From an uncultured Bacteroidota bacterium (GTDB lineage Bacteria > Bacteroidota > Bacteroidia > Bacteroidales > P3), in NCBI GenBank assembly GCA_902774845.1, contig CACYJU010000005.1, positions 22,050 to 86,049 of the forward strand: DNA of 64,000 bases, read 5' to 3'. A model generated the notes under the pieces. The model did not search any database. It was not told the origin of the DNA and worked only from the letters and a program-made list of their open reading frames with translations. The translations under genes were made by a program, and so were the position numbers. Below, in pieces: positions 1 through 18,545 of the stretch (the first letter of the stretch is position 1; each line of letters opens with the position of its first letter).

Positions 1-986
1 ATATTTATAGTCCAAAAGAAGTCATGGAATTTGTTTCCAATATAGGAGAGGAATCCAGTTGGAGGGTGTGGCATAGCGTTCCTGCACCTGCACGCGAATT
101 TTTTGACAGAATATTCTGGAACAGTCATACGGAATCAAAAGAGATGCTTTTATATGCTGAACGGGAATACATAAACACCCACTTTGCCAATTATGATCCT
201 GCAAAACAAGATATGTGGGCGGAATACAATCGCCCATGGGATTTTGATCATATTGTTGCACAAATTCGTATCAAAGGAAAGCAAGGGGATTTCCGTGAAT
301 ATGATAAAGTCTGGCTGGATAGCATAGGAAACTTTGCAGCAATATCATATGAATCAAATCGCAGTAAGAGCGATGGGGAGGATTATAGTGAATATTATGC
401 TAATCGTACCTCATTAGATTATAATAGCGATGTGGAGAAATTAAAATATGATTTGACTTATGATGCCTTATCGAGTGTTGAATTTGCGAACATCACCTAT
501 ACCCGTTTCTGTAAAATATATGGCAAAGTGTTTGACTTGATTAGGGAAATTGTTTGTCAGACAACCCTTTCCGATACCCTTTGGGAAAGAAAAGTCTTGT
601 TTGAAGAAGTGAAAAAATTATACCCCAATGCCATATTTCATTTCGCGGCTTCAGATCAAAATGATCACAAATTACAACGCGATCAAGATTGGGCAAGGCA
701 GTGGGTTGGAGTCGGAATCGAGATGGGCAATTATATGGCATGCGTAGAGTGGGCAGCCACTAAGAAAGATGGAAAACCTTCTGGTGTGGAATGTGGCATA
801 AGGAAAGCCCTCGGTACATCTGTAACCCAAGAGAATAAAGACACTCTTGGTGGAGATGATTTGTTGAATGAAGATAATGACTGGTGGTACAAATGTGTTG
901 TGTATGATTCCTTTGAATTAGAAAGCATAAAAATACAGTTAGACAAATATTTACTGGAAATAGAACAAACTAACAAGGCCGTATAA
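1..986 (+). CDS. C-terminal part of a DUF1524 / GmrSD-like His-Me finger nuclease (5' end outside the window)
   Basis: The frame is open from base 3 to the first ATG at 24, so the gene probably starts upstream of the window. WDFDHIVAQ ... IGNFAAISYESNRSKSD fits the DUF1524 (D/E)HIxP ... GN..L....N.SK signature. Confidence 0.6.
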   Translation, partial: IYSPKEVMEFVSNIGEESSWRVWHSVPAPAREFFDRIFWNSHTESKEMLLYAEREYINTHFANYDPAKQDMWAEYNRPWDFDHIVAQIRIKGKQGDFREYDKVWLDSIGNFAAISYESNRSKSDGEDYSEYYANRTSLDYNSDVEKLKYDLTYDALSSVEFANITYTRFCKIYGKVFDLIREIVCQTTLSDTLWERKVLFEEVKKLYPNAIFHFAASDQNDHKLQRDQDWARQWVGVGIEMGNYMACVEWAATKKDGKPSGVECGIRKALGTSVTQENKDTLGGDDLLNEDNDWWYKCVVYDSFELESIKIQLDKYLLEIEQTNKAV

Positions 987-988: not shown

Positions 989-1105
989 ATGCTCCAATAC
1001 ATAGCCGATAGAGACATTTATACTGAAGTTCTTTTGTGGTGTTGGTCCAGTTGTGCATGACTTGTAGAATATGAATAATAGTTGACTTAAAAAGCAGGAT
1101 TTGCA
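989..1105 (+). pseudogene. Degenerate 5' fragment of a PLD/HKD nuclease gene
   Basis: atgctccaatacatagccgatagagacatttatactgaagt aligns with the start of the intact PLD gene at 2597 (atgctccaatatatagctgatagagatcattatacagaagt). It translates to MLQYIADRDIYTEV and then hits a stop at 1058-1060. Weaker nucleotide similarity continues to about 1105. Confidence 0.7.
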
Positions 1106-1124
1106 ATTTCAAAAAAATGTATAT

Positions 1125-1742
1125 ATGACAATATTGGAAAAATTACAAGCTGATATGCAATACAATGAGCGACATCAGTTGTTTGCTCCATACGATGATG
1201 GAAATATGGGACAAAGGTATGCAGGCCGGTACGAGTTAATTGGAGAGGATGAAGAAGGTGAATATAAGCGTTGGTTTTTTGATAATGGACACAATTATAC
1301 TTTATGTAAAAATTTAAACATGCTATATGAATGTGAACCTTTTCCGGCAGAATATTTTATCCATAAACATATTGAAAAGGCCATATATGATATTGTAACA
1401 AATAATTCTAAAGAGGAACAGCCATTGATTTTCTGCTATGAAAATGAGGTTGGATCCAGCAAAAACCCCGTTGTGTTGATAAAAGTAATTATCAACAGGG
1501 AGTCCCGTAATGTTTGTGTGACCAATATTTTCGTTCAGATGGAGAAAAGGCACCAATGTTACGGTAAACAATTGATTAGTAAAATATATGCTATATGTAA
1601 AATGTTTGGTTATCGATTATTCTTGACAGAAATGGTTGAGTCATTCTACAATAGAATGGTTCGTCGAGGTGCAAGAATAATTGAGGTGGGGAATGTGGTT
1701 GAAATAACAGATGACACAAATCTAACACCGGTTAAAGGCTAA
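1125..1742 (+). CDS. Hypothetical protein, possibly with a GNAT-like C-terminal fold
   Basis: ORF in an AT-rich cassette. ATG at 1125, with an alternative TTG at 1101 inside the PLD fragment. The C-terminal KRHQCYGKQLISKIY ... RLFLTEM weakly resembles the GNAT Q/RxxGxG/A region. Confidence 0.45.
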   Translation: MTILEKLQADMQYNERHQLFAPYDDGNMGQRYAGRYELIGEDEEGEYKRWFFDNGHNYTLCKNLNMLYECEPFPAEYFIHKHIEKAIYDIVTNNSKEEQPLIFCYENEVGSSKNPVVLIKVIINRESRNVCVTNIFVQMEKRHQCYGKQLISKIYAICKMFGYRLFLTEMVESFYNRMVRRGARIIEVGNVVEITDDTNLTPVKG

Positions 1743-1835
1743 AAAGTTCATCACAAGTTTGATGCTTTTATCGACTTTCAATTATCTTGAAGGAGGAAGT
1801 TCTAAAACCATCTTGACTTTAAAAAATAAAAAAAC

Positions 1836-2612
1836 ATGGAAGAGAAAAACCTTAATTGGGAAGAGTTTAATAAAGATAATCCATGGCGCAAAGAGATTTT
1901 TAACATTGACACAAATAATCCGGCTGCAATGAAAGATCTAATAGATGAAATTTGTAGTGGAAAAAGAAAGTTCATTTATTCTAAGGATAAAGGACAGATC
2001 AATGAAAAGCGGTTTGAACTATCTTTGTTGCCAAAACCTTATCGTGGAAATCTAAAAGACCCCAAACTTGTCATCTTGAGCCTTAATCCAGGTTATAATG
2101 AACGGGTGAAAACCAAACTGTTTAAGATGCTTAAATATGAAAATCAAAAAAGATTCATTGAAATATCCAAGAAAAACGCTTTGTTGGAATCCCGATATAT
2201 AATATCCCCAGATGATGAAGTGGACGATGTTATGGATAATGGTTATTGGTCAGATCGCTTATCTGAATTAAAAAATGATGGTGCAGAAATATCTCGGATA
2301 GGATTGATACAATTCGTTCCTTACGCATCGGAACATTTTGGTTCATGGAATAAAAAGGAATTAGAAACTCAAAAGTTTACACGAGAAATCATCATGCGCC
2401 TCTTAACCAAGTCAAAGGACACACTTTTTCTTGTCATGCGCTCAAAGGACAAATGGAAAAAACTGATTCCAGAAATGGATAACAAGGAATACAAAGATAA
2501 GTTTCTCTATAATCAGAATCCTCGTTGCCAAAATCTGTCAAAAAACAATTTGAAGGGCAATTACGAGATAATTCTTGGTAAACTAAAGAAATACCCATGC
2601 TCCAATATATAG
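1836..2612 (+). CDS. Hypothetical protein with MUG/TDG-like (UDG superfamily) motif order
   Basis: PKLVILSLNPGYNE (compare Mug GINPG), IGLIQFVPYASEHFG, DTLFLVMRSKDKW and LYNQNPRCQNLS (compare Mug LPNPSG). The last 16 nt overlap the PLD gene start. The function is an inference from these motifs. Confidence 0.45.
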   Translation: MEEKNLNWEEFNKDNPWRKEIFNIDTNNPAAMKDLIDEICSGKRKFIYSKDKGQINEKRFELSLLPKPYRGNLKDPKLVILSLNPGYNERVKTKLFKMLKYENQKRFIEISKKNALLESRYIISPDDEVDDVMDNGYWSDRLSELKNDGAEISRIGLIQFVPYASEHFGSWNKKELETQKFTREIIMRLLTKSKDTLFLVMRSKDKWKKLIPEMDNKEYKDKFLYNQNPRCQNLSKNNLKGNYEIILGKLKKYPCSNI

Positions 2613-3112
2613 CTGATAGAGATCATTATACAGAAGTCCTCTCGCGCTGCGAGCAGGTTAAGCATGACCTTTGGATTGGGACTGCTGACTTGAAGGATTT
2701 GTATGTTAAGGGCGGTAGGGATGTGGTGCCTTTTCTTTCGGTGCTGGACAAACTGGTGAAACGGGGTGTGGAGGTGCGGTTGCTGCATGCTAAGGAGCCG
2801 GGGGAGAACTTCCGCGAGGACTTCGACAAGTATCCTGGACTCTGGTCTCGCATGGAGCGGAGACTCTGCCCAAGGGTGCATTTCAAGATTATGGTGTTCG
2901 ACTGCTCGGTGGCATATATCGGCTCGGCGAACCTCACGGGTGCCGGCATAGGCATGAAGGGCGAGGGTAACCGTAACTTCGAGGCTGGCATACTGACAGA
3001 CGACCCCATGCTGGTGGATGCCGCCGCCAACCATATCGACAGCGTCTGGCAAGGGGTACATTGCATGAAATGCCGCCGCAAAGACTTTTGCACCGATTGC
3101 GTGAAAGCATAA
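2597..3112 (+). CDS. Phospholipase D-family (single HKD) Nuc-like nuclease with a C-terminal Cys cluster
   Basis: Perfect HxKxxxxD-x6-GSxN motif: HFKIMVFDCSVAYIGSANLT. The C-terminus carries CMKCRRKDFCTDC. At 171 aa it is consistent with a dimeric single-HKD enzyme. Confidence 0.8.
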   Translation: MLQYIADRDHYTEVLSRCEQVKHDLWIGTADLKDLYVKGGRDVVPFLSVLDKLVKRGVEVRLLHAKEPGENFREDFDKYPGLWSRMERRLCPRVHFKIMVFDCSVAYIGSANLTGAGIGMKGEGNRNFEAGILTDDPMLVDAAANHIDSVWQGVHCMKCRRKDFCTDCVKA

Positions 3113-3122
3113 CACCTCTCGC

Positions 3123-3154
3123 TATCAACACATCAACCTATCAACTTATCAACA
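3123..3154. repeat. Four 8-bp tandem units (TATCAACA/CATCAACC/TATCAACT/TATCAACA)
   Basis: Read directly from the sequence. The array starts 11 nt after the PLD stop codon. Confidence 0.9.
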
Positions 3155-3191
3155 TTTAGACACTGTGTCACGATTTGACATACTGGGTTGG

Positions 3192-3199
3192 TATCTTTG
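3192..3199 (+). promoter_or_regulatory. Bacteroidetes -7 promoter box TAtcTTTG
   Basis: ggTATCTTTGcaag lies 27 nt upstream of the ATG at 3226. It is preceded by tgtgtcacgatttgaca, which resembles the repeated hairpin modules at 11955, 12789 and 14121. Confidence 0.6.
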
Positions 3200-3225
3200 C
3201 AAGCGGAACTTAAAACTCAAAAATC

Positions 3226-3795
3226 ATGTTTCACTCAGATTCCAAACCTTACGACCTTGAAGTGGGCGAGTATGCCGGACTGCTGGCCAACCGCGAATAT
3301 TGGGACAGCTACTCGTATGAGTGGAGCGGATTCCATACAATGGACCAAAAACTCATACATTTGGCGGGATTTGTAAATATGGGCGGCGACCTCTTGTGGG
3401 TCATAAAGCACTACGCCAAAGGCCGCTCTCGGGAATACAGGTTCTGCATACACAGCGCCATATCAAGGTATCTGTTTCGCATGATTTCGGAGGGACTGAC
3501 GAAAGAGGAGCGCGCCAAAGACGATTCGGGCGTGAGGATGATGTTCCTCGACAGGGAGGAGCTGGTGGAGCTGCTGACTGAGGAGCTGAAACGCAAGGTG
3601 ACATACGATCTGAAAACCATTCGCACCGCATGTGGCTGCGATGTGGTAAGGAAATGGTATGTGGAAAGCCCCAAGGTGTTTGATGACACCGTGCTGGCGA
3701 AAATAGAGCAGGCCCACAAACAGGCCCATCCCGACGAAACCGTAGAGGACAAACGTCGCTACTATGAACGCTGGCTCCACGAATGTATGTTTTGA
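3226..3795 (+). CDS. Hypothetical protein
   Basis: 189-aa ORF directly downstream of a -7 box. No motif recognised. Confidence 0.5.
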   Translation: MFHSDSKPYDLEVGEYAGLLANREYWDSYSYEWSGFHTMDQKLIHLAGFVNMGGDLLWVIKHYAKGRSREYRFCIHSAISRYLFRMISEGLTKEERAKDDSGVRMMFLDREELVELLTEELKRKVTYDLKTIRTACGCDVVRKWYVESPKVFDDTVLAKIEQAHKQAHPDETVEDKRRYYERWLHECMF

Positions 3796-3837
3796 TTGGA
3801 TTGTGTGAATGTGTTAATTTGTAAGTGTTAAAGATAA

Positions 3838-4338
3838 ATGCAGAACTTTGCAGCCATAGATTTTGAAACCGCCAACGGGTGCCGGTCGAGCGTGTGCAGC
3901 GTGGGTGTGGTGGTTGTGCGTGACGGTGTGATGACGGACAGTTTTTATAGCCTTATCCGACCTGAACCGAACTACTACGCTTGGTTCTGCCAGGAGGTGC
4001 ATGGCCTGTGCCACGAGGATACCGATGATGCCGAGGTGTTCCCGAAAGTGTGGGCGAAGGTGGCTCCGCTGATTGAAGGACTGCCGCTGGTGGCGCACAA
4101 CAAGATGTTCGACGAGGGATGCCTGAGGGCTGTGATGGAGGTCTATCAGATGGACTGGCCCGACTATGAGTTCCAATGCACTCTTCAGGCATCGAGGAGG
4201 ATGCTTCCTCACCTCGAGAACCATCAGCTACATACCGTCTCCGCTGCCTGCGGCTATATCTTAGAAAACCACCATCACGCCTTGGCCGACGCAGAGGCCT
4301 GTGCGGCGATAGCAATACGGTTGGGACTCTGCAAATAG
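3838..4338 (+). CDS. DnaQ-like 3'-5' exonuclease (DEDDh)
   Basis: Exo I AAIDFETAN, Exo II VAHNKMFDEG, Exo III HHALADAEA. Confidence 0.85.
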   Translation: MQNFAAIDFETANGCRSSVCSVGVVVVRDGVMTDSFYSLIRPEPNYYAWFCQEVHGLCHEDTDDAEVFPKVWAKVAPLIEGLPLVAHNKMFDEGCLRAVMEVYQMDWPDYEFQCTLQASRRMLPHLENHQLHTVSAACGYILENHHHALADAEACAAIAIRLGLCK

Positions 4339-4449
4339 AAAGATTTTGATTTGTGAATACCGAGACGGCGGGCATCCTTGCTCGCCGTTTTTTCTTTGAA
4401 AAATATGACACTTTTTATCACTATGACAAGATATGGCATAGTATGTTGT

Positions 4450-4457
4450 TATTTTTG
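4450..4457 (+). promoter_or_regulatory. -7 promoter box TAttTTTG
   Basis: gtTATTTTTGcaagcgg lies 35 nt upstream of the ATG at 4492. Confidence 0.55.
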
Positions 4458-4491
4458 CAAGCGGAAACAAAAAAAGAAAGGAGATAATAAT

Positions 4492-6240
4492 ATGAAAAAA
4501 GATGCTAAGAAAACGGATTCAAGCAAGGAGGAGTTCTTGCAAATGGTAGACGAAGCAATGGGAATTGCAAAGGAGGCAGGATTGGATCTGGTGCCGGCGG
4601 AAGAGGAAGAGCGGGACTTGCTTTCGGAGGTGGAACAGATTGTTGAGCTTGCCAGAGAGTCGAGATTGTCGCAAGAGTTCTATCGTGTTGCGGACAACCA
4701 TATAAGCTATATCGCTGACAAGCTGAATCTGACGAAGAACCAGAGTGTGCTGCTTGCGTTGTTTGTAGACAATAGCGACGACAGCAGTATAGAACTGAGC
4801 GACCTGTCGAGGTATTTGGGTTGCAGCACGACGCGAATGTTACGTCTGTCGACAGAGATAGACGGACTTGTGGAGCGTGATTATATAAGAAAAGGAAAGA
4901 CGAGGGGCGAAGTGAGATATCATGTGCCACAGGAGGTGCTGGAATCCTTGAAAAAGAACCAACCGATAACACGGCGATGTATAGAAAATCTGGACTTGAC
5001 GAAGTTTTTTGACGAGATATCGGAGATATTCGACATGGTGAACGATGACGAGTTGGACATCGAGTCGGCGGAGAGACGCATCGAAGAACTGATGGAAGCC
5101 AACAAGCATCTGTCGTTTGTGGAGAAGGTTAAGGGACAGTATTGCGTTGAAAGACGTGATTTAATCATTCTGTTGATATTCTGCCACCTGTTCATCACGA
5201 ATGCTGACGACCAGATAGGTTTTCACGACTTGGAGTTTATGTTCAGCAGATGGCAGATGCGCAGCATTCGGTCGGAGTTGACGGGGGAATATAGTTCGTT
5301 GCAGCGGGATAAACTGATAGAGTGGAGCAGCAACGGGGGCTTTGCAGACAGGGAGTATTTCAGGCTCACGATGAACGCCAAGCGGGAGCTGCTTGACGAG
5401 CTGAACCTGCCGTCGCTCTCGAAGAATAAGTTGAAGCGCGGAGTGATGAAAGCCAGCGACATCAACGCAAGGAACCTCTTTTATGACACGAAGGTGACGC
5501 ACAGTATAGACGAGCTGGCGAGCCTGCTGGAGGAGGATAACTACCGCGACATACATGCACGGCTGCAGGAGCAGGGTTTCCGCTGCGGTTTCGCCTGCCT
5601 TTTCTACGGTGCTCCCGGAACGGGCAAGACGGAGACGGTGTTGCAGCTGGCACGGCGCACGGGACGTGACATACTTCAGGTGAACATCGCCGAGCTGAAA
5701 AGCATGTGGGTGGGCGAGAGCGAGAAGAACGTGAAGGCGGTGTTCGACTCGTACCGCCAGCAGGTGAAGAGTTCAGCCATCACGCCGATATTGCTTTTCA
5801 ACGAGGCCGACGCCATAATCGGCAAACGACAGGAGGGCGCAGAGCAAGCGGTGGAGAAGATGGAAAACTCCATCCAGAACATCATCCTGCAGGAGATGGA
5901 GACCCTCGACGGCATACTGATAGCCACCACCAACCTGGTGCAGAACATGGACAAGGCGTTTGAGCGCAGGTTCCTGTACAAGATACGGTTTGACAAACCG
6001 ACGGTGGAGGCACGGACGGCGATATGGCATGAGCTGCTTCCGGCATTGGATATGGCAGACGCCACGAAGCTCGCCGAGCGTTACGACTTCAGCGGAGGAC
6101 AGATAGAGAACATCGCCCGCCACTACGCCATCGACGCCATACTGCATGGCCATACTGCACCTACGGCAGAGAACCTGACGGCACACTGCGACTCGGAGAG
6201 GATAAACCAGAAGAATGAGGGGAGGAAGATTGGGTTTTGA
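4492..6240 (+). CDS. AAA+ family ATPase with a long N-terminal (wHTH-like) region
   Basis: Walker A GAPGTGKTE, Walker B ILLFNEADAI, sensor-1 LIATTN, then RRF. The start is placed at the ATG downstream of the -7 box, because the track start at 4378 lies upstream of that promoter. Confidence 0.8.
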   Translation: MKKDAKKTDSSKEEFLQMVDEAMGIAKEAGLDLVPAEEEERDLLSEVEQIVELARESRLSQEFYRVADNHISYIADKLNLTKNQSVLLALFVDNSDDSSIELSDLSRYLGCSTTRMLRLSTEIDGLVERDYIRKGKTRGEVRYHVPQEVLESLKKNQPITRRCIENLDLTKFFDEISEIFDMVNDDELDIESAERRIEELMEANKHLSFVEKVKGQYCVERRDLIILLIFCHLFITNADDQIGFHDLEFMFSRWQMRSIRSELTGEYSSLQRDKLIEWSSNGGFADREYFRLTMNAKRELLDELNLPSLSKNKLKRGVMKASDINARNLFYDTKVTHSIDELASLLEEDNYRDIHARLQEQGFRCGFACLFYGAPGTGKTETVLQLARRTGRDILQVNIAELKSMWVGESEKNVKAVFDSYRQQVKSSAITPILLFNEADAIIGKRQEGAEQAVEKMENSIQNIILQEMETLDGILIATTNLVQNMDKAFERRFLYKIRFDKPTVEARTAIWHELLPALDMADATKLAERYDFSGGQIENIARHYAIDAILHGHTAPTAENLTAHCDSERINQKNEGRKIGF

Positions 6241-6241
6241 T

Positions 6242-6332
6242 GTAAGAAGTAAGATGTAAGAAGTAAGATGTAAGAAGTAAGAGGGAAGAAGTAAGAGGGA
6301 AGAAGTAAGAGGGAAGATGTAAGAAGTAGGAC
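6242..6332. repeat. Thirteen 7-bp tandem units (GTAAGAA/GTAAGAT/GTAAGAG/GGAAGAA)
   Basis: Read directly from the sequence. The array begins 2 nt after the ATPase stop codon. The same heptamer family recurs at 58736-58763. Confidence 0.95.
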
Positions 6333-6390
6333 GTGTCCAGGTTTAATGGGGTTGCTTTGGTTGAAAGTTAAGCAGTAAAAACAATATTTT

Positions 6391-7485
6391 ATGGAACAGA
6401 TTATTTCAAAAACAGGTCCCAGGAAGGTGTGGGACGGGGTGCCGGGATTCAGATCGTTCGATGAGCCCGTCAGCGTCAGGGAAGCGCTGGAAGCCATACA
6501 AGGAGATTTCCTTGTAGAGAAGCAGTCGTTGATGCGAATGCCTGACAGGGTTATGAGTTCGTTGCTCACGTACGGTCATGTGCCATCGGACGTGACGCTT
6601 TCGGATCTGTCGAGGATGATGGTGAAGAGCCATCAGGCTACGGTGAACATGCGAGACGACGAGACGTTGGGCGTGGTAGGTAAAGACTATGGAGTGGTGC
6701 AGAACGCGCAAGCGTTTGAGTTTATCGACTTTCTGTGCAATACCGATGTGGAGGGAGGTAAACCAATCATAGAGGCCTGTGGGCAGATAAACAACGGGGC
6801 TACGATCTATTTCTCGGCCAAGATGCCGACCAACTTCAGGATTAACGGTGATTCGGGCATAGAGGATTATGTGCTGTTCCACACCTCGCATGACGCTACA
6901 TGTGCGGTGACGGTTGCTTTGACACCTATAAGGATGATTTGTCAAAACTGCCTGAGCGGGGCGTTGAAATCGCGGAACAAGATGACCGTGCGGCATTCGA
7001 AGAATGTGATGGACCGCATAGACCTGACCCGCAGCAGCAACAGGGACATAGTCTTGCAGTTGCTGGGGCTTAGGGAGAGGTATACCAAGGAGTTTGTGCA
7101 ATCGTTGGACTACCTGCGGATGCAGCGAGTGAGCCATGAAGATGTGTTGGAGTTTGCCACCAGAGTGATACTTGACGAAGCGCGGCAGGTGGAGCAGGCA
7201 CGGCAGAACAGATGGAACGTGCAGACGGTGGACACCATAGCAGAGCAGACTAAGAGGAGGATATGGGATCTGGAGAACTCGATAGAGAGCGGAGTGGGGC
7301 AGGGCGAGAACCGCGGCACCAAGCTGTGGCTATACAACGGGCTGACGACCTACTACGCCAACGATGTGTTCTGGGGAACGTCGAAAGACCTGCCAGAGGT
7401 GCGAGCCACAAGGAAGTTCAAGTCGATAGTGAGGGGAGCCGCCAACGACAAGGTCCAGAAAGGGTTTGAACTGCTGATGGGATGA
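6391..7485 (+). CDS. DUF932-like protein (phage/plasmid-associated family)
   Basis: Length and the FHTSHDATCAVTVALTPIRMICQNCL segment match the NSHDGS...R.VC.N pattern I associate with DUF932. The assignment is from memory only. Confidence 0.55.
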   Translation: MEQIISKTGPRKVWDGVPGFRSFDEPVSVREALEAIQGDFLVEKQSLMRMPDRVMSSLLTYGHVPSDVTLSDLSRMMVKSHQATVNMRDDETLGVVGKDYGVVQNAQAFEFIDFLCNTDVEGGKPIIEACGQINNGATIYFSAKMPTNFRINGDSGIEDYVLFHTSHDATCAVTVALTPIRMICQNCLSGALKSRNKMTVRHSKNVMDRIDLTRSSNRDIVLQLLGLRERYTKEFVQSLDYLRMQRVSHEDVLEFATRVILDEARQVEQARQNRWNVQTVDTIAEQTKRRIWDLENSIESGVGQGENRGTKLWLYNGLTTYYANDVFWGTSKDLPEVRATRKFKSIVRGAANDKVQKGFELLMG

Positions 7486-7539
7486 GGTGTGGGTGTGTTA
7501 TGATCGTAAAAGTGGTATGATTGTTTATAGTGGTAGGCT

Positions 7540-8220
7540 ATGTATCAAGAGGTGTCAGATATTTTAAGGATTTCCAATGCCGACACTCTTCGCCAGATGC
7601 TTGCGCAATGTGAGGATGAGATTATGCGTATGGCGACGTATTGCGAAAATTGTTATTATTGGCCAAGAGATGTTGAGGACCGTGTTAAGGAAGAGTTGGG
7701 TACGCGTGCATGTATTCTTAACCACATGTTCGCCCTTCATTGTACCCCGGCCGAGGTGATGCGATTTGAAACTGTAAACGCTGCGTTGCTGCGTTTAGAA
7801 CGTATGCATAGGTCATGGCACGATAAGTTGCAAAAACAGTTTTCAGCCATTCATGGGCTTGACGGAGAACCATTCACCGTAAGGACGGTCATAAATGGTG
7901 GTATTGACGAGAATACACCTCTTTACGTCATGGACGAGGATGCCTATTATGGTTCACGCTGGAGAGAGATGATAGATGCGATCAGTGAAACCTCTGTGAT
8001 TGAAGCCATGTGTGATTCATGCGTGGAGATGGAGGACGGTGTCAGCTGGGCAGAGGGACCACTTTGCATTCCACAGTTGGAGCATGTGAAAGTCTGCTAT
8101 CTCTTCCACGCACTTTGCACACACTTGGATTACTCTATCCCAGACGTGCTGAGAATGCAAACTTATCGCTTTGACTACAGCATGGATTGTACGGACTTTG
8201 TGACGTTAGATACAGAATGA
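7540..8220 (+). CDS. Hypothetical Cys-rich protein
   Basis: 226-aa ORF. No motif recognised. Confidence 0.45.
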   Translation: MYQEVSDILRISNADTLRQMLAQCEDEIMRMATYCENCYYWPRDVEDRVKEELGTRACILNHMFALHCTPAEVMRFETVNAALLRLERMHRSWHDKLQKQFSAIHGLDGEPFTVRTVINGGIDENTPLYVMDEDAYYGSRWREMIDAISETSVIEAMCDSCVEMEDGVSWAEGPLCIPQLEHVKVCYLFHALCTHLDYSIPDVLRMQTYRFDYSMDCTDFVTLDTE

Positions 8221-8325
8221 TTAATTGGCAACCTCCTTTTTGGGTAGGCTTATGAAGATACTATGGTGCAGGCATTGCTTTGAAAAAAATGCGTATAATT
8301 GCAAAAAAATTAAGTTTATAGAATA

Positions 8326-8565
8326 TGGATACAAATCTTATCGAAAGGAGAAACGCTGAATATCAACCTCTCATAGAGTCGTTCAAAGAGAGAATTAAAG
8401 GACTTGAGCTTGAAGGGATAACGAGACCGCAATTTCGAAGCTGGCATTCTAACCGACGAACCCAATCTCGTTGACGCCGCCGCCGACCACCTCGACAACG
8501 TCTGGCAAGGCCGCCCCTGCAAGAGCTGCAAGAGGAAAGACTTTTGTGGGGATAGGATTAGGTGA
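8326..8565 (+). pseudogene. Chimeric remnant: 5' end of a UDG-like gene (10768 family) joined out of frame to the 3' end of a PLD gene
   Basis: MDTNLIERRNAEYQPLIESFKERIKGLELEGITRPQF parallels MRKNIIDRRNAEYSPLIDDFKDEVKDLNFKGITGPHF of the 10768 ORF. From about 8424, another frame reads RNFEAGILTDEPNLVDAAADHLDNVWQGRPCKSCKRKDFC, parallel to the PLD C-terminus NRNFEAGILTDDPMLVDAAANHIDSVWQGVHCMKCRRKDFC. Confidence 0.75.
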
Positions 8566-8602
8566 GACTATAACGTCACTTGCATCTATAGTGGAATATT
8601 AG

Positions 8603-8610
8603 TACCTTTG
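8603..8610 (+). promoter_or_regulatory. -7 promoter box TAccTTTG
   Basis: agTACCTTTGcaaac lies 33 nt upstream of the ATG at 8643. Confidence 0.55.
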
Positions 8611-8642
8611 CAAACATTTATAAACCTAAAATCAATACCACT

Positions 8643-9185
8643 ATGAAAAAATACGACATCAGCGAGCTTGAGGCCGAACTGGAAGGCCTGTCCCTTTTGG
8701 AAAAGAAGTCGCATCTTGAGAATGTGCAGAACGATATTGAATCAGAAATAGAGGAACTGGAAACGGCAAAAGACGAAGTGGAAGAACTGTTGAGTGATGT
8801 TGAGAACCAGATCAACGAAGGCTACAAGTCGGAGATAGCCACCGCACTCAAAGGTTTTTCGTCTGATGTGTGCAAGCTTCTTCCCGACAATACGCTCGAC
8901 ATTGAAGGTCTGAAGTTTGAGTTCTATAGGTTCTGCGAAGACGACGACACACTACATATCTCCATCAGTGGTAGAAAAACCATCGTCAATACCGGCGATT
9001 TCAATGCCGAGTTCAAGGCATTCCTGCAGCCGATACTACCCGATGCCAAATACAAGGACATGCAGATATGCATCCACATTGACGACAACAGCGAGGTTGC
9101 AGCTCTGGTCAAAGGAATAGCTGAGAAACTAATCACTGAAGCGCCAAAGATTGTTGAGATGGGTGGGAAGTATAAGTTTGTGTAG
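8643..9185 (+). CDS. Hypothetical protein with an acidic coiled-coil N-terminus
   Basis: 180-aa ORF downstream of a -7 box. The N-terminal 60 aa are rich in E, L and D heptads. Confidence 0.5.
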   Translation: MKKYDISELEAELEGLSLLEKKSHLENVQNDIESEIEELETAKDEVEELLSDVENQINEGYKSEIATALKGFSSDVCKLLPDNTLDIEGLKFEFYRFCEDDDTLHISISGRKTIVNTGDFNAEFKAFLQPILPDAKYKDMQICIHIDDNSEVAALVKGIAEKLITEAPKIVEMGGKYKFV

Positions 9186-9256
9186 GTATAACACCACAAA
9201 AATATGTCTATACAGGGTAATATTGGATGATAACTTATAACAAAACCTAATTAATC

Positions 9257-9973
9257 ATGGAACAATTAAGAGAAAATCTAAAACGTTTGTATCACGATTT
9301 CTTTGTTGACATGAAGATTGATCAACAAACAGGCATTGTCAATGGGACAAATCGAAGGTTCACTGGATACCCATACATCGGGGGCAACTATATAAACGCT
9401 CCTGTTAAAATATTGTTTATACCTTTAGATGTGGGTGTAGATGAAAGAGAAAATGAAAACACATACCATACATTTGAAAGTCGAAAAGACATTTTCCCAT
9501 CAGGCAAGCTTGATTTTAATCCACATATTGCGGGTTTATATGCAACTGCTCTTTATATTCTCAAGGAAAAAATGGGATTACAGGCTGCATGGGATGCTCT
9601 TTGGGGAAATAGAAAATATAATAATGTAAAAGCCATTAATCTGGCTTACGATTCTTTGCCCAAAGATCTTATGTCGTATGTGGCCTATGAAAATCGATTT
9701 CGTTTCGTCACAATTGGTAGAAAAGAAAGAAGTGGAGGCAACGATCGTGTTTGGATTAATCCAAAAAGAGAAGGTCAACTTTTAGTAACTGAAATTAATG
9801 CCTTCTCTCCAGATATTATTGTCTTTCAAGGAAAATATGGATTAGGCAATTGTCATATTGATGAACTAAAGGAGAAATATAAGGTTGTTATTGCATACCA
9901 TCCGTCATGTTGGCAGCATAGGGCTAATAGATTAGAATACATAGTGGATCACATTGGTCCACAATTGTTATAA
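9257..9973 (+). CDS. Hypothetical protein with UDG-superfamily-like motif order (paralog 1)
   Basis: Ordered motifs: VKILFIPLDVGVDE, SYVAYENRFRFV, SPDIIVFQGKYG, VVIAYHPSCWQH. They parallel UDG family-4 elements (hhhhGEAPG, N.VK, IV.LG, HPS). Confidence 0.5.
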   Translation: MEQLRENLKRLYHDFFVDMKIDQQTGIVNGTNRRFTGYPYIGGNYINAPVKILFIPLDVGVDERENENTYHTFESRKDIFPSGKLDFNPHIAGLYATALYILKEKMGLQAAWDALWGNRKYNNVKAINLAYDSLPKDLMSYVAYENRFRFVTIGRKERSGGNDRVWINPKREGQLLVTEINAFSPDIIVFQGKYGLGNCHIDELKEKYKVVIAYHPSCWQHRANRLEYIVDHIGPQLL

Positions 9974-10183
9974 GTGAAAGGCGTCTTTTGTATTTTGTGT
10001 TAGAAACCATGTAATCTAAACATTATTATGAAAACAATAAAAGAACTTTAAAAACTACAATCACAAGTCGTTAATGAAATCTATAACCATGCGAGGAAAC
10101 TAGGATTAAGTAATGATGACCTTGAACCAATAACGGACGGTGTTTGTTCCATTGAAGGCTACATAAATTCATCCCCTAAAATT

Positions 10184-10744
10184 ATGTGGATATTAAAGGA
10201 ACCTTATGATGATTTTGACGAAGATAAACCTAATGGAGGAGGATGGTCCATTACTGAACATTGTTTCGGGGGAAAAGATGATATATGGTCCCAGCGTACG
10301 TGGCAACCGATAATCTATGTCATGTATGGCTATCTACATAGCTTGATGTGGCAAGATATGGACTGGATAAGAGATAACAAGGATATGGCAGACGTTTTAA
10401 AAGACATAGCATATATCAATGTCAGTAAAATGCCTGGATATACTCGTTCAACATGGACCAACATCAGTCACTGTTATTCTTTGTGGAAACCCATTCTTGA
10501 CAAACAATTTGATATATATGACCCCAATGTTATTGTTTGTGCAGGGACACTGTCATTTTTTAAAGAGGACTTTGTTAAAAGCGGTATGTTACAGATTGAT
10601 TCGGTGCAAAGTGCGATAGATGTATATAGATTGGATAAGAAGATTATAATTGACGCATATCATCCGTTACAAACGAAAATAGACAGGAGCTCATATGTGG
10701 ATTCAATTATAAAAATGCTTAACAAGTATTTTCCGAAAAGTTAA
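10184..10744 (+). CDS. UDG-superfamily-like paralog 2, apparently N-terminally truncated by an in-frame TAA
   Basis: MWILKEPYDD, IAYINVSKMPGYT, YDPNVIVCAGTLSFF, IIIDAYHPLQ. The same frame reads MKTIKEL-TAA-KLQSQVVNEIYNHARKLGLSNDDLEPITDGVCSIEGYINSSPKI from the ATG at 10028. Confidence 0.5.
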   Translation: MWILKEPYDDFDEDKPNGGGWSITEHCFGGKDDIWSQRTWQPIIYVMYGYLHSLMWQDMDWIRDNKDMADVLKDIAYINVSKMPGYTRSTWTNISHCYSLWKPILDKQFDIYDPNVIVCAGTLSFFKEDFVKSGMLQIDSVQSAIDVYRLDKKIIIDAYHPLQTKIDRSSYVDSIIKMLNKYFPKS

Positions 10745-10767
10745 TGGAATCGAAATGTTAAAATGGT

Positions 10768-11919
10768 ATGAGAAAAAATATTATTGATAGAAGGAATGCT
10801 GAGTATTCTCCCCTGATTGATGATTTCAAAGATGAGGTAAAGGATTTGAATTTCAAAGGAATCACAGGTCCTCACTTCCCGAGTATTGGCGAATGCTATG
10901 AAGATGCAAAATATAAGTTTGCTTTTTGTGGTATGGAAACGTATGGATGGAACAAAATGCCGTATTTTATGGAACAAAAACCAGACTCATATTTGACTGA
11001 AAGTGATACCCTTCTTAATAATTATGAACATCTGACTTGGGCAGCAAACTGGCATGCAACATTTTGGGGATTTGTCTTCAAGTTTTTAGCCAAATTCTAT
11101 AAGATGGAATTTGAAAAACTAGTCAATGATAAGAACGACTTTAACGCCCGTTCTCTTCTAAAAAGTTTCGTATGGGCAAATTCAAATGCTATTGAACGGT
11201 ATGATGTAACAAGCAAATGGGAAGGTGCTGATCAAGCAGCATGGGAGTCTGTTAAAAGCGCCAGTAAAAGATTTGACGATATTAACCACATACTCAATTC
11301 ATGTGATCCAAAAGTTGTTTTTATCATTTATGGCGGAGCAAATGAAGAATATATGCTGAATGAAAAAACAATAAGTGATATTTATGGCATTGACCCTAAC
11401 CAAAGAAAAGGTTGGTTGCGATTGCGTCATAATAACCCTAAATATGACTATATTTATCTTCGCAGTACATCTACACACATTTTCCACTTGCCTCATCCTA
11501 CCTGGATGGGTTTATATAGCGGTATAGGAATAGACGCTTATGTGGATTCGTTGATTCAAGATATCGAAAACTATCATATTTGGGATAAATTACCAAATTC
11601 GAATGATGACTGGAACATGAATATGGTGGATGAAGTCGAACCTTCAACTATCGATTTCAAATATCGACTGATTGCTTCGGTCGCACATTCTTTGGTTCAG
11701 AATAATGTGGTAATGTGTGGCGGTGATATGGTTAGATTATTCAATATGAACGGAATTCATACGCAAAGAGGTTCTGACTATTCAAACAACATTAGTCAAG
11801 GATCATATAAGCCCATTTCCAGTGCTTGGGCATACTATTATAATAGGGGTGATTATCAGACGGCATACGAAATCGCACGAGCTTTTGTTAATCAAAATGG
11901 AGAATATGCCTACGAATAA
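10768..11919 (+). CDS. UDG-superfamily-like paralog 3 with a roughly 110-aa C-terminal extension
   Basis: KYKFAFCGMETYGWN, SFVWANSNAIERY, CDPKVVFIIYGGANE, THIFHLPHPTWMG. The N-terminus is homologous to the remnant at 8326. Confidence 0.5.
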   Translation: MRKNIIDRRNAEYSPLIDDFKDEVKDLNFKGITGPHFPSIGECYEDAKYKFAFCGMETYGWNKMPYFMEQKPDSYLTESDTLLNNYEHLTWAANWHATFWGFVFKFLAKFYKMEFEKLVNDKNDFNARSLLKSFVWANSNAIERYDVTSKWEGADQAAWESVKSASKRFDDINHILNSCDPKVVFIIYGGANEEYMLNEKTISDIYGIDPNQRKGWLRLRHNNPKYDYIYLRSTSTHIFHLPHPTWMGLYSGIGIDAYVDSLIQDIENYHIWDKLPNSNDDWNMNMVDEVEPSTIDFKYRLIASVAHSLVQNNVVMCGGDMVRLFNMNGIHTQRGSDYSNNISQGSYKPISSAWAYYYNRGDYQTAYEIARAFVNQNGEYAYE

Positions 11920-11954
11920 AAGGCTGTGATTATTTGAAAATCCAATCTTTTGAA

Positions 11955-12038
11955 GGAGTGTCACAATCTGGCACTCCTTTTGTTTTTCTTTGCATCTTGT
12001 AACAGGAAAGCAAAACTTATTTATTTACTTAAAACTTT
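11955..12038 (+). promoter_or_regulatory. Terminator-promoter-leader module, copy 1
   Basis: Hairpin GGAGTGTCAcaatcTGGCACTCC, a T-tract TTTTGTTTTT, a TTTG box (ttctttgcatc), and the leader cttaaaactttatgattatga. It is similar to the modules at 12789 and 14121. Confidence 0.65.
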
Positions 12039-12188
12039 ATGATTATGAGAAATGTATTGCTTACGGGATTGTATTGGTTCTCCAGATTGCTCGGCGGAGA
12101 TTCGCCCATCCGTCTCACTCCGAGAAAAGTACCTGTGGAAAATCATGCCCAGAACCGGAATATGACAAAGCGAAATGAAAAATTCTGA
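12039..12188 (+). pseudogene. N-terminal remnant of a paralog of the 14200 gene
   Basis: MIMRNVLLTGLYWFSRLLGGDSPIRLTPRKV parallels MIMKNVLIAGFEMFLKKLMGIPPIRLNPRAV, then diverges and stops after 49 codons. Confidence 0.6.
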
Positions 12189-12530
12189 AACGAACCAATG
12201 AAACATACAATTATGAATATCGAAAGCATAAAACCAGAATGAACCACAAGAAGAAAACTTTGATATTTTGTGCAATGGCTTGCTTTGTTGCACTATTGGT
12301 TGTGGTTATCTGTCTGAATGCCGAATCACGATGGGTACGGATTCCGTTTGTATGACAAACAATCCGTCACCCGCCTAAGCGATCTCCACACCTGCTGAAT
12401 TTTGCACCGAATTTGACTAAAAAATGACAAAAAAAACAGTAAAAAATCGATGATTTTGGGGCGAGAAAGGGGATGCAGCATGGAAGCCTATAAATTTACA
12501 CACCTATAAACCAACCTGTTATCCTTTCGG

Positions 12531-12606: not shown

Positions 12607-12788
12607 CAAAAATGCCCTGATTCGTAATCATCTGATTACCAATGGATGTTAAATTCCGTGTGTTGTGGGAGTTGACTGGGAGTTAGTACGGAGTTGGTAC
12701 GGAGCTAAACGAATTTTGAATTCCTAATTTTGAATTATGAATATAGACGGGGACTTTTTCAAGTTGAAAGTTGATTTTTTTTGTGGGA

Positions 12789-12857
12789 GTGTCACGATGT
12801 GGCACACCTTTTGTTTTTCTTTGCAACTTGAAAAAACAAACAAAACGTTTATGCATT
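12789..12857 (+). promoter_or_regulatory. Terminator-promoter-leader module, copy 2
   Basis: GTGTCACgatGTGGCAC hairpin, ACCTTTTGTTTTT, ctttgcaacttgaaaaaacaaac. It lies directly upstream of the ATG at 12858. Confidence 0.65.
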
Positions 12858-14099
12858 ATGAGAAATAAGGGATTAATGCCGAAGCAAGTGGACACTTCGA
12901 TGATTAAGGACTGTATTGGAGTAAAAGAAGGGGTTGATGAGGATGAAATACGTAAAGGGGAATCGCATATACTGGAGACGCTAAATGCTTACGGAATAGG
13001 GGTTGAACGGATAACCGCAGAGCTGCGACTCAGCGTGATTTATTATGAGGTGTTCCCGTCGAAGGATTTTGGCTTTCTGGAATTGAAAAAACATTTGTAT
13101 GATTTTTCCGTTTCGCTTGGCTCGATATACGCACGAATATTAGTGCCTGTTCCTGGCAAGGTGGCGATAGGAATAGAGTTTCCCAGAACTAATCCGCAGT
13201 TGGTCTCGGCTAAAGAGGTCTTCGATAGCGAGGCTTTTAGGGGGAGTGATGCAATCTTGCCCGTTGTTTTCGGGAAAACAGATTTGAACCAATACTATGT
13301 GTCGGACCTTACGAGAATGCATCATATTCTGATTGCAGGAGCCACCGGGATGGGTAAAACCATGTGCCTGAAGTCGATGATAGTTGGCTTGTTGTACAAG
13401 AAACGGAGTCCTGAGTTAAAACTGGTATTAATCGACACCAAGAGAGTGGAATTCAATGTATTTACGTCCCTTGATACAACTTTCTTTGCCAAAGAAAAAA
13501 ACATTGATACCGACATTATTACTGGTACGATGCAATCAATAAGGATGATCAATGCTTTGAAAATGGAGATGGATAAAAGGTATGATCTTCTAAGAGAAAC
13601 AGGTACGAGTAATATTGAGGACTATAATGAAAAACAATTCCAAAATGGAAATGAAGAAGGATGTCACTGTTTGCCATATATCGTGGTTGTAATTGATGAA
13701 TTTGCGGACCTGATGCTTACGTCAAGAAAAGAATTGGAAGAACCCTTGGTAATGCTTGCTACATTAAGTCATAGGGTAGGTATCCATTTGATTATGTCAA
13801 CCCAACGTCCAACAACCAATATTGTGACTGGTTCGATATTGGTCAATTTCCCTATTCGGGTGGCATTTAAAATGGCAATACCATCGGAGTCAAGACGTGT
13901 TATAGGCAGAGATGATGCGGTTTGTCTGATTGGTAATGGAGATATGTTTATCTCCACGCCGTCTGACAATGAACCAATACGTTGTCAAGGGGCTTATGTG
14001 TCCGATTCCGATACTGCAAACATTGTGAGGTTCATTAATGGACAAAATGGATGTTTGGATGATGAATATTATCTGCCAATGATGGGTAAAGAGGAATGA
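12858..14099 (+). CDS. FtsK/SpoIIIE-family DNA translocase ATPase domain protein (no TM segments seen)
   Basis: Walker A IAGATGMGKT, Walker B VVVIDEFADLM, and MSTQRP. The start is set at MRNKGL after the promoter module, because the track start at 12771 runs through that module. Confidence 0.8.
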   Translation: MRNKGLMPKQVDTSMIKDCIGVKEGVDEDEIRKGESHILETLNAYGIGVERITAELRLSVIYYEVFPSKDFGFLELKKHLYDFSVSLGSIYARILVPVPGKVAIGIEFPRTNPQLVSAKEVFDSEAFRGSDAILPVVFGKTDLNQYYVSDLTRMHHILIAGATGMGKTMCLKSMIVGLLYKKRSPELKLVLIDTKRVEFNVFTSLDTTFFAKEKNIDTDIITGTMQSIRMINALKMEMDKRYDLLRETGTSNIEDYNEKQFQNGNEEGCHCLPYIVVVIDEFADLMLTSRKELEEPLVMLATLSHRVGIHLIMSTQRPTTNIVTGSILVNFPIRVAFKMAIPSESRRVIGRDDAVCLIGNGDMFISTPSDNEPIRCQGAYVSDSDTANIVRFINGQNGCLDDEYYLPMMGKEE

Positions 14100-14120
14100 G
14101 TCGTGTGTGTGTTTCGACAT

Positions 14121-14199
14121 GTGTCACGATGTGGCACACCGTTTTTGTTTCTTTGCAACTTGAAAGAACAAACAAACTTAATTATTCACTTAAAACTTA
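14121..14199 (+). promoter_or_regulatory. Terminator-promoter-leader module, copy 3
   Basis: GTGTCACgatGTGGCACAC, CGTTTTTGTTT, ctttgcaacttgaaagaacaaac, and the leader cttaaaacttaatgattatga. Confidence 0.65.
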
Positions 14200-15243
14200 A
14201 TGATTATGAAAAATGTATTGATTGCAGGATTTGAAATGTTTCTCAAGAAGTTGATGGGAATTCCACCGATAAGGCTCAATCCGAGGGCGGTGGTAGTGAC
14301 GGCATGCCTCGCTTTTATGGTTGCAACTCCAGTGGCGGCGCAGAAGACGGTGCGCTACGAGGGCGTGATGATAATGCCAGGAGATCTGGATCAGATGCGG
14401 CAGTTGATGTCGGTGTCTGTCGGTGACAGAGGGGATGGGTACTATGATTATTATGAGAACGCAGACGGTGACAGGGTGAAGCACGGGAAGTTCTTATTTA
14501 TACATAAGTACTCGGCATCGGTCTGGCAAGTACTGTATGGGCAGTATAAGGATGGCAAAAAGACAGGAGTGTGGGTGGTTAAGGACTCGATAGTGACAAA
14601 AGAGCGAATCAAGAAATATGCACTCTATGATGTCCGCGCTACCTATGAGAACGACTTGCTGAATGGGGCTTTTAAGTGCAAGAGATGCAAGTCAGGCAGC
14701 TTTTATATTCTGGAATGTAACTTCGTGAACGGACGTATGATTGGGGATGCAACATTCTCGTATGTTCCCAACGTGTCGTATGAGGTGAAGGCATCGACGT
14801 TGCAGGGCAAGATGGATGAGGCAGGACTGCCGACGGGAGTCTGGACGATGACTGACAAAATTGACGTGGAGGTGATACAGAAGAGGGTGTATGTGCAGGG
14901 AGCGTGCATCTATGTGGAGGAGAGGAACCAAGCTACGGGAGAACGGTATTCGTTATTTGGTGTATTCCCGGACATGAAAAAAGTGTCGGATGCGGATAAT
15001 GTAAAAGTGCTGGAAGAGAGTATTGAATATAATGGACAGGTGGCGAAAAAAGTAAAAGGGTTGAACCGGTCACCGGACGGGTGGTCAAATAGAATCTATC
15101 AGACGCAGGCGAACCAGGCTTCTATAGGAAAATATGAGATTGGGAAGCTGCTGGAGGATGTGCTTCCCAGTGGGTGGCGAGACGAGGAAGATGAACTGGG
15201 CAAGCAGATGAAGGATTGGGAGTGGCACTATGCGGTTGAGTAA
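14200..15243 (+). CDS. Secreted hypothetical protein, possibly MORN-variant/YwqK-like repeats
   Basis: N-terminal hydrophobic segment ending PVAAQ. Repeated G-x-W/G-K motifs: GKKTGVWVVKD, GLPTGVWTM, NGRMIGDATF. Confidence 0.4.
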   Translation: MIMKNVLIAGFEMFLKKLMGIPPIRLNPRAVVVTACLAFMVATPVAAQKTVRYEGVMIMPGDLDQMRQLMSVSVGDRGDGYYDYYENADGDRVKHGKFLFIHKYSASVWQVLYGQYKDGKKTGVWVVKDSIVTKERIKKYALYDVRATYENDLLNGAFKCKRCKSGSFYILECNFVNGRMIGDATFSYVPNVSYEVKASTLQGKMDEAGLPTGVWTMTDKIDVEVIQKRVYVQGACIYVEERNQATGERYSLFGVFPDMKKVSDADNVKVLEESIEYNGQVAKKVKGLNRSPDGWSNRIYQTQANQASIGKYEIGKLLEDVLPSGWRDEEDELGKQMKDWEWHYAVE

Positions 15244-18186: not shown

Positions 18187-18384
18187 GCCGAGTCGTAGCC
18201 GAAAATGACACCACCCGTCGGTGGCAACTTGGGCGAAAGCGGCGTTAAAAAATCTTAATTTTGATATTTGGTAAGGTTGATGTCTTGACTTTACTATGAC
18301 TTAACTATGACTTTACCATAACGTAACGAAGGAAGAAGGAAAAATTATGATGGAGGATGTCCTGCACTGAAGGTGGTATGGGTG

Positions 18385-18528: not shown

Positions 18529-18545
18529 AATAATATGAATCAGTA

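Follow-up and report, generated by a model that had tools for sequence, protein, structure and literature searches.

We analysed a 64,000-nucleotide (nt) stretch of an uncultured Bacteroidota genome (contig CACYJU010000005.1, positions 22,050 to 86,049; hereafter the window), in which an intact gene for a PLD-superfamily protein (PLD1) lies between two fragments of PLD genes. The 5' fragment (f5) directly follows a GmrSD-like gene, and the 3' fragment (f3) is located about 7.3 kb further downstream. The first-pass annotation had interpreted both as the ends of one gene that was split internally by incoming DNA. Our comparison with related strains points to a different origin: f5 and f3 are probably the scars of two separate rearrangements, which affected two different PLD genes of a strain-variable defence island. 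The fragments trace to two independent PLD genes without a shared junction, an outcome that the annotation itself had named as contradicting a split. Recombination scars at conserved anchors in variable defence islands are of a known kind, to which this locus adds a case. Both parental arrangements were recovered, and the locus is a clean natural example of how defence islands are rebuilt among near-identical strains: backbone genes and promoter elements appear to act as anchors, AT-rich cassettes are swapped, and redundant anchor copies are left behind as datable scars.

Parental arrangements and the two PLD fragments

Comparators were obtained from look-ups of close relatives of PLD1 and of o180, the open reading frame downstream of f3. 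They originate from other samples and are 94–98% identical to the window in the backbone. BLASTN alignments were done against the window extended with L001, a 150-kb contig that encodes the exact PLD1 protein and carries RNase R and peptidase M3 genes upstream of the window; coordinates in this upstream part are marked w-. The upstream chromosome (w-7403..-2062) is 97% identical to L100. In L099, L100 and L104 a DUF4268 gene takes the place of the adjoining slot (w-2061..2585), which here comprises a gene for 186 amino acids, the GmrSD-like gene, f5, o213 and o258. The strains become homologous again at 2586, 11 nt before the ATG of PLD1, which is found at the same site in L099–L102 (89–94.5% nucleotide identity over 2586–3091). 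A second variable slot (3092–3826) contains o189 in the window and a gene for 337 amino acids in L100–L103; homology to L100 stops at 3091 and resumes at 3827. The gene order is 286-residue gene, DUF4268, PLD1, o189, exonuclease, AAA, PLD2, 277-residue gene and o180-like gene in L099, and 286-residue gene, DUF4268, PLD1, 337-residue gene, exonuclease, AAA, DUF932, o226 and o383' in L100–L102. None of these four strains has GmrSD or a 5' fragment in the slot upstream of PLD1, and the block is 94–97% identical. Since GmrSD-free strains share it at the same chromosomal position, the PLD1–exonuclease–AAA–DUF932–o226 block is best read as resident backbone; the proposal that the new PLD gene and the exonuclease/AAA/DUF932 genes had come in from outside does not hold. 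We also searched PLD1 for a mosaic crossover by strain comparison, but the differences were scattered without a clear breakpoint. At the position of f3, L099 carries an intact second PLD gene (PLD2), and the contigs of L100–L102 end earlier.

The fragment f3 extends from 8408 to the stop codon at 8563–8565 and corresponds to PLD nt 356–513 (codons 119–171). An ungapped alignment with PLD1 resulted in 73% identity and a score of 93, compared with 17.8 ± 2.2 for shuffled sequences (z = 35). f3 has a single in-frame stop codon (8419–8421) and no indels. It shares 87% identity with the allele of L021, with 11 synonymous and 3 non-synonymous codon differences and again without indels, and 98.2% with the 3' end of PLD2 in L095, where this gene is full-length. 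The latter contig contains, in this order, the 3' end of AAA, a gene for 176 amino acids, DUF6140, PLD2 and o180, and the window is 98.2% identical to it over 8408–12053. PLD2 of L095 (1260–1775) has a TAA at codon 11, which is normally Tyr; this suggests that a redundant copy is beginning to decay there as well. In L099 PLD1 and PLD2 are both intact and 3.7 kb apart, PLD2 again being located downstream of AAA. We therefore regard f3 as the probable remnant of a second backbone gene, PLD2, whose now missing 5' part never adjoined GmrSD, given that the full-length gene lies downstream of AAA in both L095 and L099.

On its left side f3 is fused out of frame to o383', the first 37 codons of a gene whose product is 56% identical in amino acid sequence to the N-terminus of o383. 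Homology of L100 to the window ends at 8436, and its o383' gene continues past codon 37; homology of L095 starts at 8408. The join thus falls into a patch of 29 nt with imperfect homology common to o383' and PLD, and the window appears to be composed of an L100-type left arm and an L095-type right arm joined inside 8408–8436. A full-length o383' allele was not recovered; the closest protein, P0153, encoded on a 2-kb contig, matches 27 of the 37 N-terminal residues. The identical fusion is present in the independent assemblies L097 and L098, and L097 is 95.7% identical to the window over 4404–9094.

The fragment f5 is much more degraded. Over 989–1032 it matches PLD nt 1–44 at 38 of 44 positions with two compensating 1-nt indels, and the local score of 56 compares with 17.0 ± 2.3 for 500 dinucleotide shuffles (z = 17). 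The remaining part (1033–1105) was not significant in a free local search against PLD (z = 1.1), but when it was compared in register with PLD nt 45–110 its score was reached by 2 of 2000 shuffles (z = 3.5). Plausibly, f5 runs to the GGATTTG at ~1103, roughly PLD codon 35. Its decay comprises frameshifts, insertions of 4 and 5 nt and one stop codon. The ATG is located 2 nt past the stop codon of the GmrSD-like gene (984–986), which in the window shows a weak Pfam match to GmrSD_C; the full gene in L001 matches GmrSD_N. GmrSD-like genes directly followed by an intact PLD gene were found in L009, L068 and L056 (gaps of 3–31 nt), and the window GmrSD is 80% identical at the nucleotide level to that of L009. 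In two metagenome relatives (L091 and L092; GmrSD 76–79% identical in amino acid sequence) the GmrSD stop codon is followed, after 2 nt, by the decayed remnant of a PLD 5' end (z = 11 against the PLD of L009). From these arrangements, with GmrSD followed by either an intact PLD or a PLD remnant, it follows that f5 is most readily explained as an old relic of a PLD gene that once stood directly behind GmrSD.

In L092 the remnant is followed by 290 nt and then by an intact PLD. We dropped the idea that this spacer is a relic of o213–o258 with a shared junction, as the alignment was no better than shuffles (z = 0.8). A single ancestral truncation for the L091 remnant and f5 is likewise not claimed, since the two have no detectable similarity (z = 0.5). 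The metagenome scan with the GmrSD C-terminus yielded only 4 short loci, L091 and L092 among them.

f5, with stop codons and indels, and f3, without indels, are in different states of decay. f5 would accordingly be old and f3 young, which argues independently against a single event. The left junction was also observed in L001, L002 and L107, which are independent assemblies. Since each junction was seen in more than one independent sample, an assembly artefact or chimaera was rejected. A phase-variable shufflon was rejected too, because the fragments in the window are direct and not inverted repeats and no invertase is present.

Much of the first-pass description was borne out by these data. 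Both fragments lie far above shuffled controls and do not overlap in PLD coordinates, the 5' copy at 989–1105 begins 2 nt behind GmrSD, the intact PLD (2597–3112) overlaps its upstream gene (1836–2612) by 16 nt, and the 5' end of a UDG-like gene is fused out of frame at ~8430. The 3' remnant, placed at 8424–8565 (codons ~125–171), is real, but it starts at 8408. The postulated GmrSD–PLD operon exists, in L009, L068 and L056, but it is not the parent of f3. Among related genomes we found this uninterrupted operon and, with DUF4268, an alternative cassette, but no GmrSD–PLD–o180 locus.

PLD genes as recurrent junctions

To survey the surroundings of PLD genes we fetched 80 genome loci with PLD relatives at 64–86% amino acid identity. 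The direct upstream neighbours at 79 loci form 52 clusters, and the direct downstream neighbours at 77 loci form 48. The neighbours include GmrSD, McrBC, Fic and DUF4143 ATPases as well as housekeeping genes, and the same modules (exonuclease, AAA, WYL, RhuM-Fic, o226, o238, o383, GmrSD, DUF932, FtsK) surround PLD in shuffled order. Additional PLD fragments or copies are present at 11 of the 80 genome loci and, together with L091 and L092, at 13 of 82; five of them represent one Paludibacteraceae lineage. The near-isogenic L099 adds a case of two intact PLD genes. PLD 5' fragments end at nt 100–115, and 3' fragments start at nt 322–363. Judged by these arrangements, PLD behaves as a recurrent rearrangement junction, and the suggestion of the first-pass annotation that it serves as a recombination anchor is supported; PLD1 itself would have this role in the window. 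With ~50 different neighbours on each side in 80 genomes, PLD is a very frequent junction in rumen Bacteroidales and could be used as bait for mining defence and anti-defence cassettes.

Some PLD alleles (P0110 and P0120, also L037 and L058) have in-frame tandem-repeat insertions right after codon 37, where 5' fragments end, and the 5' fragment of L050 has three copies of CTCGCCCGAAAAAGTGT behind it.

The Paludibacteraceae loci that we compared share the same flanks and occur in four states. L063 and L057 have one uninterrupted PLD of a "resident type". In L050 and L062 a 5' fragment (nt 1–115) is followed by X (a DUF4143 ATPase), an intact "incoming-type" PLD', Y (191 amino acids, minus strand) and a 3' fragment (nt 322–513). 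L041 has the X side only. L048 and L072 have the Y side only, with chimeric PLD ends as expected from a loop-out between direct repeats. PLD' is 80–84% identical to the resident type in the middle part, the segment in which the two allele types separate most clearly. The fragments are 88–93% identical to resident alleles and slightly less, 83–89%, to the intact copy of L050. With the uninterrupted L063 and L057 as comparators, the sequences document that a resident PLD was internally replaced by X–PLD'–Y. The split-gene reading, derived from one sequence, is thus wrong locally and right as a general mechanism elsewhere.

Proposed route and alternatives

Based on the strain comparison we propose the following course of events. 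In the first rearrangement a PLD gene behind GmrSD (2-nt spacer) would have been cut at about codon 35 when the o213–o258 cassette was joined upstream of PLD1. The left joint would lie in GGATTTG/CAA (the slash marks the joint). This sequence reads like the TTTGCAA end of the Bacteroidetes -7 promoter box that heads island modules, which points to illegitimate joining through a short microhomology, the homologous anchor being provided by the PLD coding sequence at the opposite end. L010 contains an independent, inverted PLD 5' fragment with the same GGATTTG end and the promoter/operator element behind it. The microhomology is short and only suggestive. In the second rearrangement the L100-type left arm (AAA–DUF932–o226–o383') would have been joined to the L095-type right arm (PLD2–o180 and onwards), either by a deletion or by homology-facilitated illegitimate recombination (HFIR) anchored in the shared AAA gene. 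The join would have occurred inside the 29-nt patch, between o383' codons 28–37 and PLD2 codons 119–128. Loss of PLD2 is tolerable because PLD1 remains. AAA is located left of the join in both the window and L095, with 92.5% identity over the last 67 nt before the L095 contig ends. We favour HFIR-type recombination, that is an anchor plus an illegitimate join, and/or deletion at microhomologies, in an island that has redundant PLD copies; derivatives would later arise by homologous loop-out. For the enzymatic route we infer a RecA-dependent anchor combined with a microhomology join, and the order of the two events and the cause of breakpoint clustering are to be taken in the same sense. The recurrence of PLD junctions and the independence of the two fragments are shown by the comparisons, and the parental states and the breakpoints can be read directly from the alignments: near-isogenic relatives with each parental arrangement exist, and their homology ends at the joint (L100 and L095 for the right joint, L099 and L100 for the left slot).

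Orphan and displaced module arrays at Rhs, contact-dependent inhibition (CDI) and type VI secretion system (T6SS) effector–immunity loci have been explained by HFIR (PMC5361080, which refers for this process to de Vries & Wackernagel 2002 and Prudhomme et al. 2002). The locus has in common with these arrays a conserved gene as putative homologous anchor, resident sequence displaced by incoming modules, truncated remnants left beside their old neighbours, microhomology at the joints and sister strains with alternative states. It differs in the anchor, a small HKD nuclease gene in a defence island instead of a toxin gene, in the remnants, which are found both upstream (5') and downstream (3'), and in the cargo, which is of defence type and does not consist of immunity genes.

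Defence-gene hotspots flanked by conserved core genes are found in mobile elements such as P2/P4 and, as hotspot 5, in the SXT integrative and conjugative element. The island resembles them in having conserved flanks around variable, AT-rich, defence-like cargo that differs between near-identical strains. Unlike those hotspots, it shows no integrase, phage or conjugation backbone within its bounds, and its conserved flank, PLD, is itself duplicated and fragmented. Integron cassettes are comparable as small, promoter-proximal units of one or two genes at a recurrent site; here, however, we found neither an integrase nor imperfect inverted repeats of the attC kind, the junctions lack precision, and the cassettes come with a promoter-like element of their own.

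Several points weigh against two separate rearrangements. All comparators are metagenome assemblies, and the L095 and L097 contigs break off within AAA or close to it. Only over its first 44 nt is f5 most similar to PLD1 of the window, and gene conversion instead of ancestry could account for this likeness. Among the relatives, none has GmrSD followed by an intact PLD1 at this chromosomal site, and none carries a donor of o213–o258. Random illegitimate recombination alone, moreover, fails to explain why breakpoints cluster. The clustering might be due to microhomology with promoter boxes, to a specific process, or to selection, since fragments in which the HKD motif is kept might be dominant-negative in a dimeric enzyme and be selected against.

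The split of one ancestral GmrSD–PLD gene, with ~7.3 kb of incoming DNA replacing PLD codons 38–124, would account for two non-overlapping fragments in the right order and orientation; GmrSD–PLD operons exist, and the same topology is real in Paludibacteraceae. We nevertheless consider it very improbable. The intervening block is shared, at an unchanged site, by strains that lack GmrSD, the parent of f3 is complete downstream of AAA in L095 and L099, the fragments differ in age, and f3 fits the L021/L095 allele while f5 fits PLD1. No uninterrupted gene with GmrSD...o180 flanks that matches both fragments was found among the relatives. Tandem accretion followed by trimming comes closer to the data. 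Here PLD-bearing modules (GmrSD–PLD0; o213–o258–PLD1 and onwards; o383'–PLD2–o180) would have been gathered by homologous, Campbell-type integration and redundant copies eroded by simple deletions. The two intact copies in L099 and L070, the truncated copy of 115 codons beside an intact one in L019 and the nonsense codon in PLD2 of L095, which looks like early decay, fit this picture, and a simple deletion between o383' and PLD2 could have produced the f3 junction. Yet no locus has a full-length o383' upstream of PLD2 (this place is taken by the 176-residue gene and DUF6140 in L095 and by AAA in L099), and we regard accretion as unlikely as a separate account; it largely overlaps with the favoured explanation and differs only in the route.

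A dedicated cassette-capture process is also rather unlikely. In such a process the ends of the PLD gene would serve as attachment sites. They would be opened by a trans-acting site-specific recombinase or through breaks that a nuclease introduces, for which PLD itself is a candidate. Cassettes would bring along parts of the PLD gene as att-like arms, in the manner of islands inserting at tRNA genes or prfC, which rebuild the gene they target. X and Y of Paludibacteraceae are each bounded by direct partial PLD repeats and independently present or absent, but homologous loop-out between the repeats explains this equally well. The clustering of breakpoints in independent lineages and the insertions exactly after codon 37 in some alleles are in line with capture. 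Against it, no integrase or recombinase Pfam family was found in the open reading frames of the window scanned between 24 and 37705 or upstream in L001, and recombinases are absent from the 25 most frequent families listed for 94 PLD-neighbour representatives. The junctions differ by 2–40 nt and are therefore not precise, and the partner sequences are unrelated: one is a promoter box, another the interior of a UDG-like gene and a third the 3' end of an open reading frame. With similarly little confidence we mention that PLD gene ends could be preferred, perhaps actively generated, break-and-join sites, which would make PLD a self-marking landing pad for defence cassettes across Bacteroidales. 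It is doubtful that a sequence-specific process (a recombinase in trans, a Chi-like hotspot or PLD-linked cleavage) focuses breaks at ~nt 100–115 and 322–363, as such a landing pad would imply; the competing view is that illegitimate recombination occurs at random and selection filters its products. Separate rearrangements of two PLD genes by the favoured route remain our preferred explanation.

The island, its genes and its repeats

The region is the left part of a chromosomal defence-type genomic island of ~27 kb in a rumen Bacteroidales bacterium, bounded by the peptidase M3 and RNase R genes on one side and by dnaE (at 24250 of the window) on the other (Table 1). The GC content is ~50% over 2600–8250 and 32–38% in 1–2600 and 9150–12300. 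The conserved backbone consists of PLD1, exonuclease and AAA, with or without DUF932–o226, then PLD2 and o180, and of FtsK-like, o347, RhuM-Fic and WYL genes; the strain-variable slots are AT-rich stretches that interrupt it. Island proteins match defence-type models for GmrSD, a DrmC-like PLD, the DEDDh exonuclease (PDC-S48), an IetA-like AAA, RhuM-Fic (PDC-S23), WYL/WCX and REase-ARP.

Table 1. Features in and around the PLD fragments (window coordinates).
Feature	Position	Strand	Basis or remark
GmrSD-like gene, 3' part (320 codons of 791 amino acids)	24..986	+	variable cassette DNA, ~37% GC; stop 984–986
f5, decayed PLD 5' remnant, about codons 1–35	989..1105	+	shuffle-tested alignment to PLD1
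AT-rich cassette, o213 (1101/1125–1742) and o258 (1836–2612)	1125..2612	+	open reading frame calls; function unassigned
PLD1, intact, 171 amino acids	2597..3112	+	PLDc_2; backbone
Operator-/promoter-like element	3152..3215	+	repeat families D4, D5, D8
o189, content of the variable slot between PLD1 and the exonuclease gene	3226..3795	+	strain comparison
Backbone block	3838..8220	+	Pfam matches; 96.7% identity to L100 over 3827–8436
DEDDh exonuclease	3838..4338	+	backbone member
AAA ATPase	4492..6240	+	backbone member
DUF932	6391..7485	+	backbone member
o226	7540..8220	+	backbone member
o383', first 37 codons of a UDG-fold-like gene, truncated at the junction	8325..8436	+	paralogue of 10768–11919
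Junction patch, 29 nt	8408..8436	+	o383' codons 28–37 and PLD codons 119–128 both align
f3, 3' third of PLD2, codons 119–171	8408..8565	+	out of frame with o383'
o180, native downstream neighbour of PLD2	8643..9185	+	PLD–o180 adjacency in L021 and L095
o383, intact paralogue of o383'	10768..11919	+	open reading frame; 132 homologues; AF2 model

From its domain and motif PLD1 is a predicted Nuc-like nuclease. It is a PLD-superfamily protein with a single HKD motif, matched by the Pfam models PLDc_2 (45.4 bits, cut-off 27) and PLDc (31.2 bits, cut-off 21.9). In the motif HxK(x)4D(x)6G(S/T)xN the residues H95, K97, D102, G109, S110 and N112 are invariant across 14 relatives; the catalytic HKD motif is missing from both f5 and f3. 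The family has more than 8000 relatives at 64–98% identity. The overlap with the upstream gene means that the last 5 codons of o258 are PLD1 sequence. PLD1 resembles Nuc/BfiI-type nucleases and DrmC of the DISARM system in the HxK(x)4D(x)6GSxN motif and the PLDc_2 domain, and its best matches in defence libraries are DrmC models. Unlike DrmC, it has a Cys-rich C-terminal tail and scores far below the cut-off of the DrmC equivalog NF038319 (43.6 against 133 bits). PADLOC matches to DrmC were partial only, and the DISARM partners DrmA, DrmB and methylase were not detected among the island proteins scanned with Pfam and PADLOC. A sequence search of the PDB with PLD1 gave no relative, and the PHROGs search gave nothing for PLD, o189, o226, o180, o258 and o383.

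A PLD relative with 85–87% identity (P0019; L083–L090) is the last gene of an accessory operon in phage-like contigs. This operon comprises DnaB, HTH, amidoligase, GATase, NUDIX, ADP-ribosylglycohydrolase and HD genes and faces convergent large genes. The gene therefore also travels on phages. No match was obtained when viral contigs were scanned with o180 or the GmrSD C-terminus.

For o213 and o258 there were no Pfam or NCBIfam matches. o383 had no match in Pfam, in NCBIfam or among PDB sequences, and a profile of the o238 family likewise had none in the PDB. The label "UDG-like" for o383 therefore describes a modelled fold: the top 8 PDB fold matches of its AlphaFold2 (AF2) model (pLDDT 87) all belong to UDG family 4, UdgX, SMUG1 or UNG, with TM-scores of only 0.25–0.46. 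The genes o238, o186, o383 and possibly o258 (window 9257–11919 and 1836–2612) look like divergent paralogues with a UDG-type fold and without a database family. L095 has another set in the place of o238/o186/o383, with 238, 238 and 383 amino acids.

An o180-like gene is located directly upstream of GmrSD in the left slot of the window (L001 5374–5934; 186 amino acids, 45% identical to o180 at 8643–9185), and L097 shows the order o180*–GmrSD_N–GmrSD at 4219–8546. This hints at an o180–GmrSD module that moves as a unit.

The operator-/promoter-like element at 3152–3215 (TGTCACGATTTGACA ... TATCTTTGCAA) heads the module after PLD1. It is built up from an operator-like inverted motif (TGTCACGATNTGRCA) followed by a Bacteroidetes -7-type box (TAnnTTTGCAA) and heads several island modules. 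Further copies are located at 4410–4473, 11948–12014, 12779–12845 and 14108–14177, and at 5297–5340 of L001, where the copy lies at the left edge of the variable slot. A motif scan resulted in 7 matches, with 2.85 expected. The element recurs at the 5' ends of modules, whereas PLD breakpoints vary by 2–40 nt. Conceivably, one common regulator binds the element, perhaps the WYL proteins, and it serves as an additional type of recombination anchor.

An FtsK/SpoIIIE-type ATPase and a conserved partner of 347 amino acids are encoded at 12771–15243, each preceded by the promoter/operator element; the best defence-library matches of the ATPase are SspH and mad8 models. The two proteins may act in DNA translocation, mobility or defence. 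Tandem repeats of 7/14 nt (GTAAGAAGTAAGATGTAAGAA...) are found at 6220–6334 between AAA and DUF932, where L095 and the window diverge. About eight tandem repeats of 11/22 nt (GTATACAAAGTGTATAGARGG) at 18365–18531, beside a WYL/WCX gene on the minus strand, look like iterons or an operator array.

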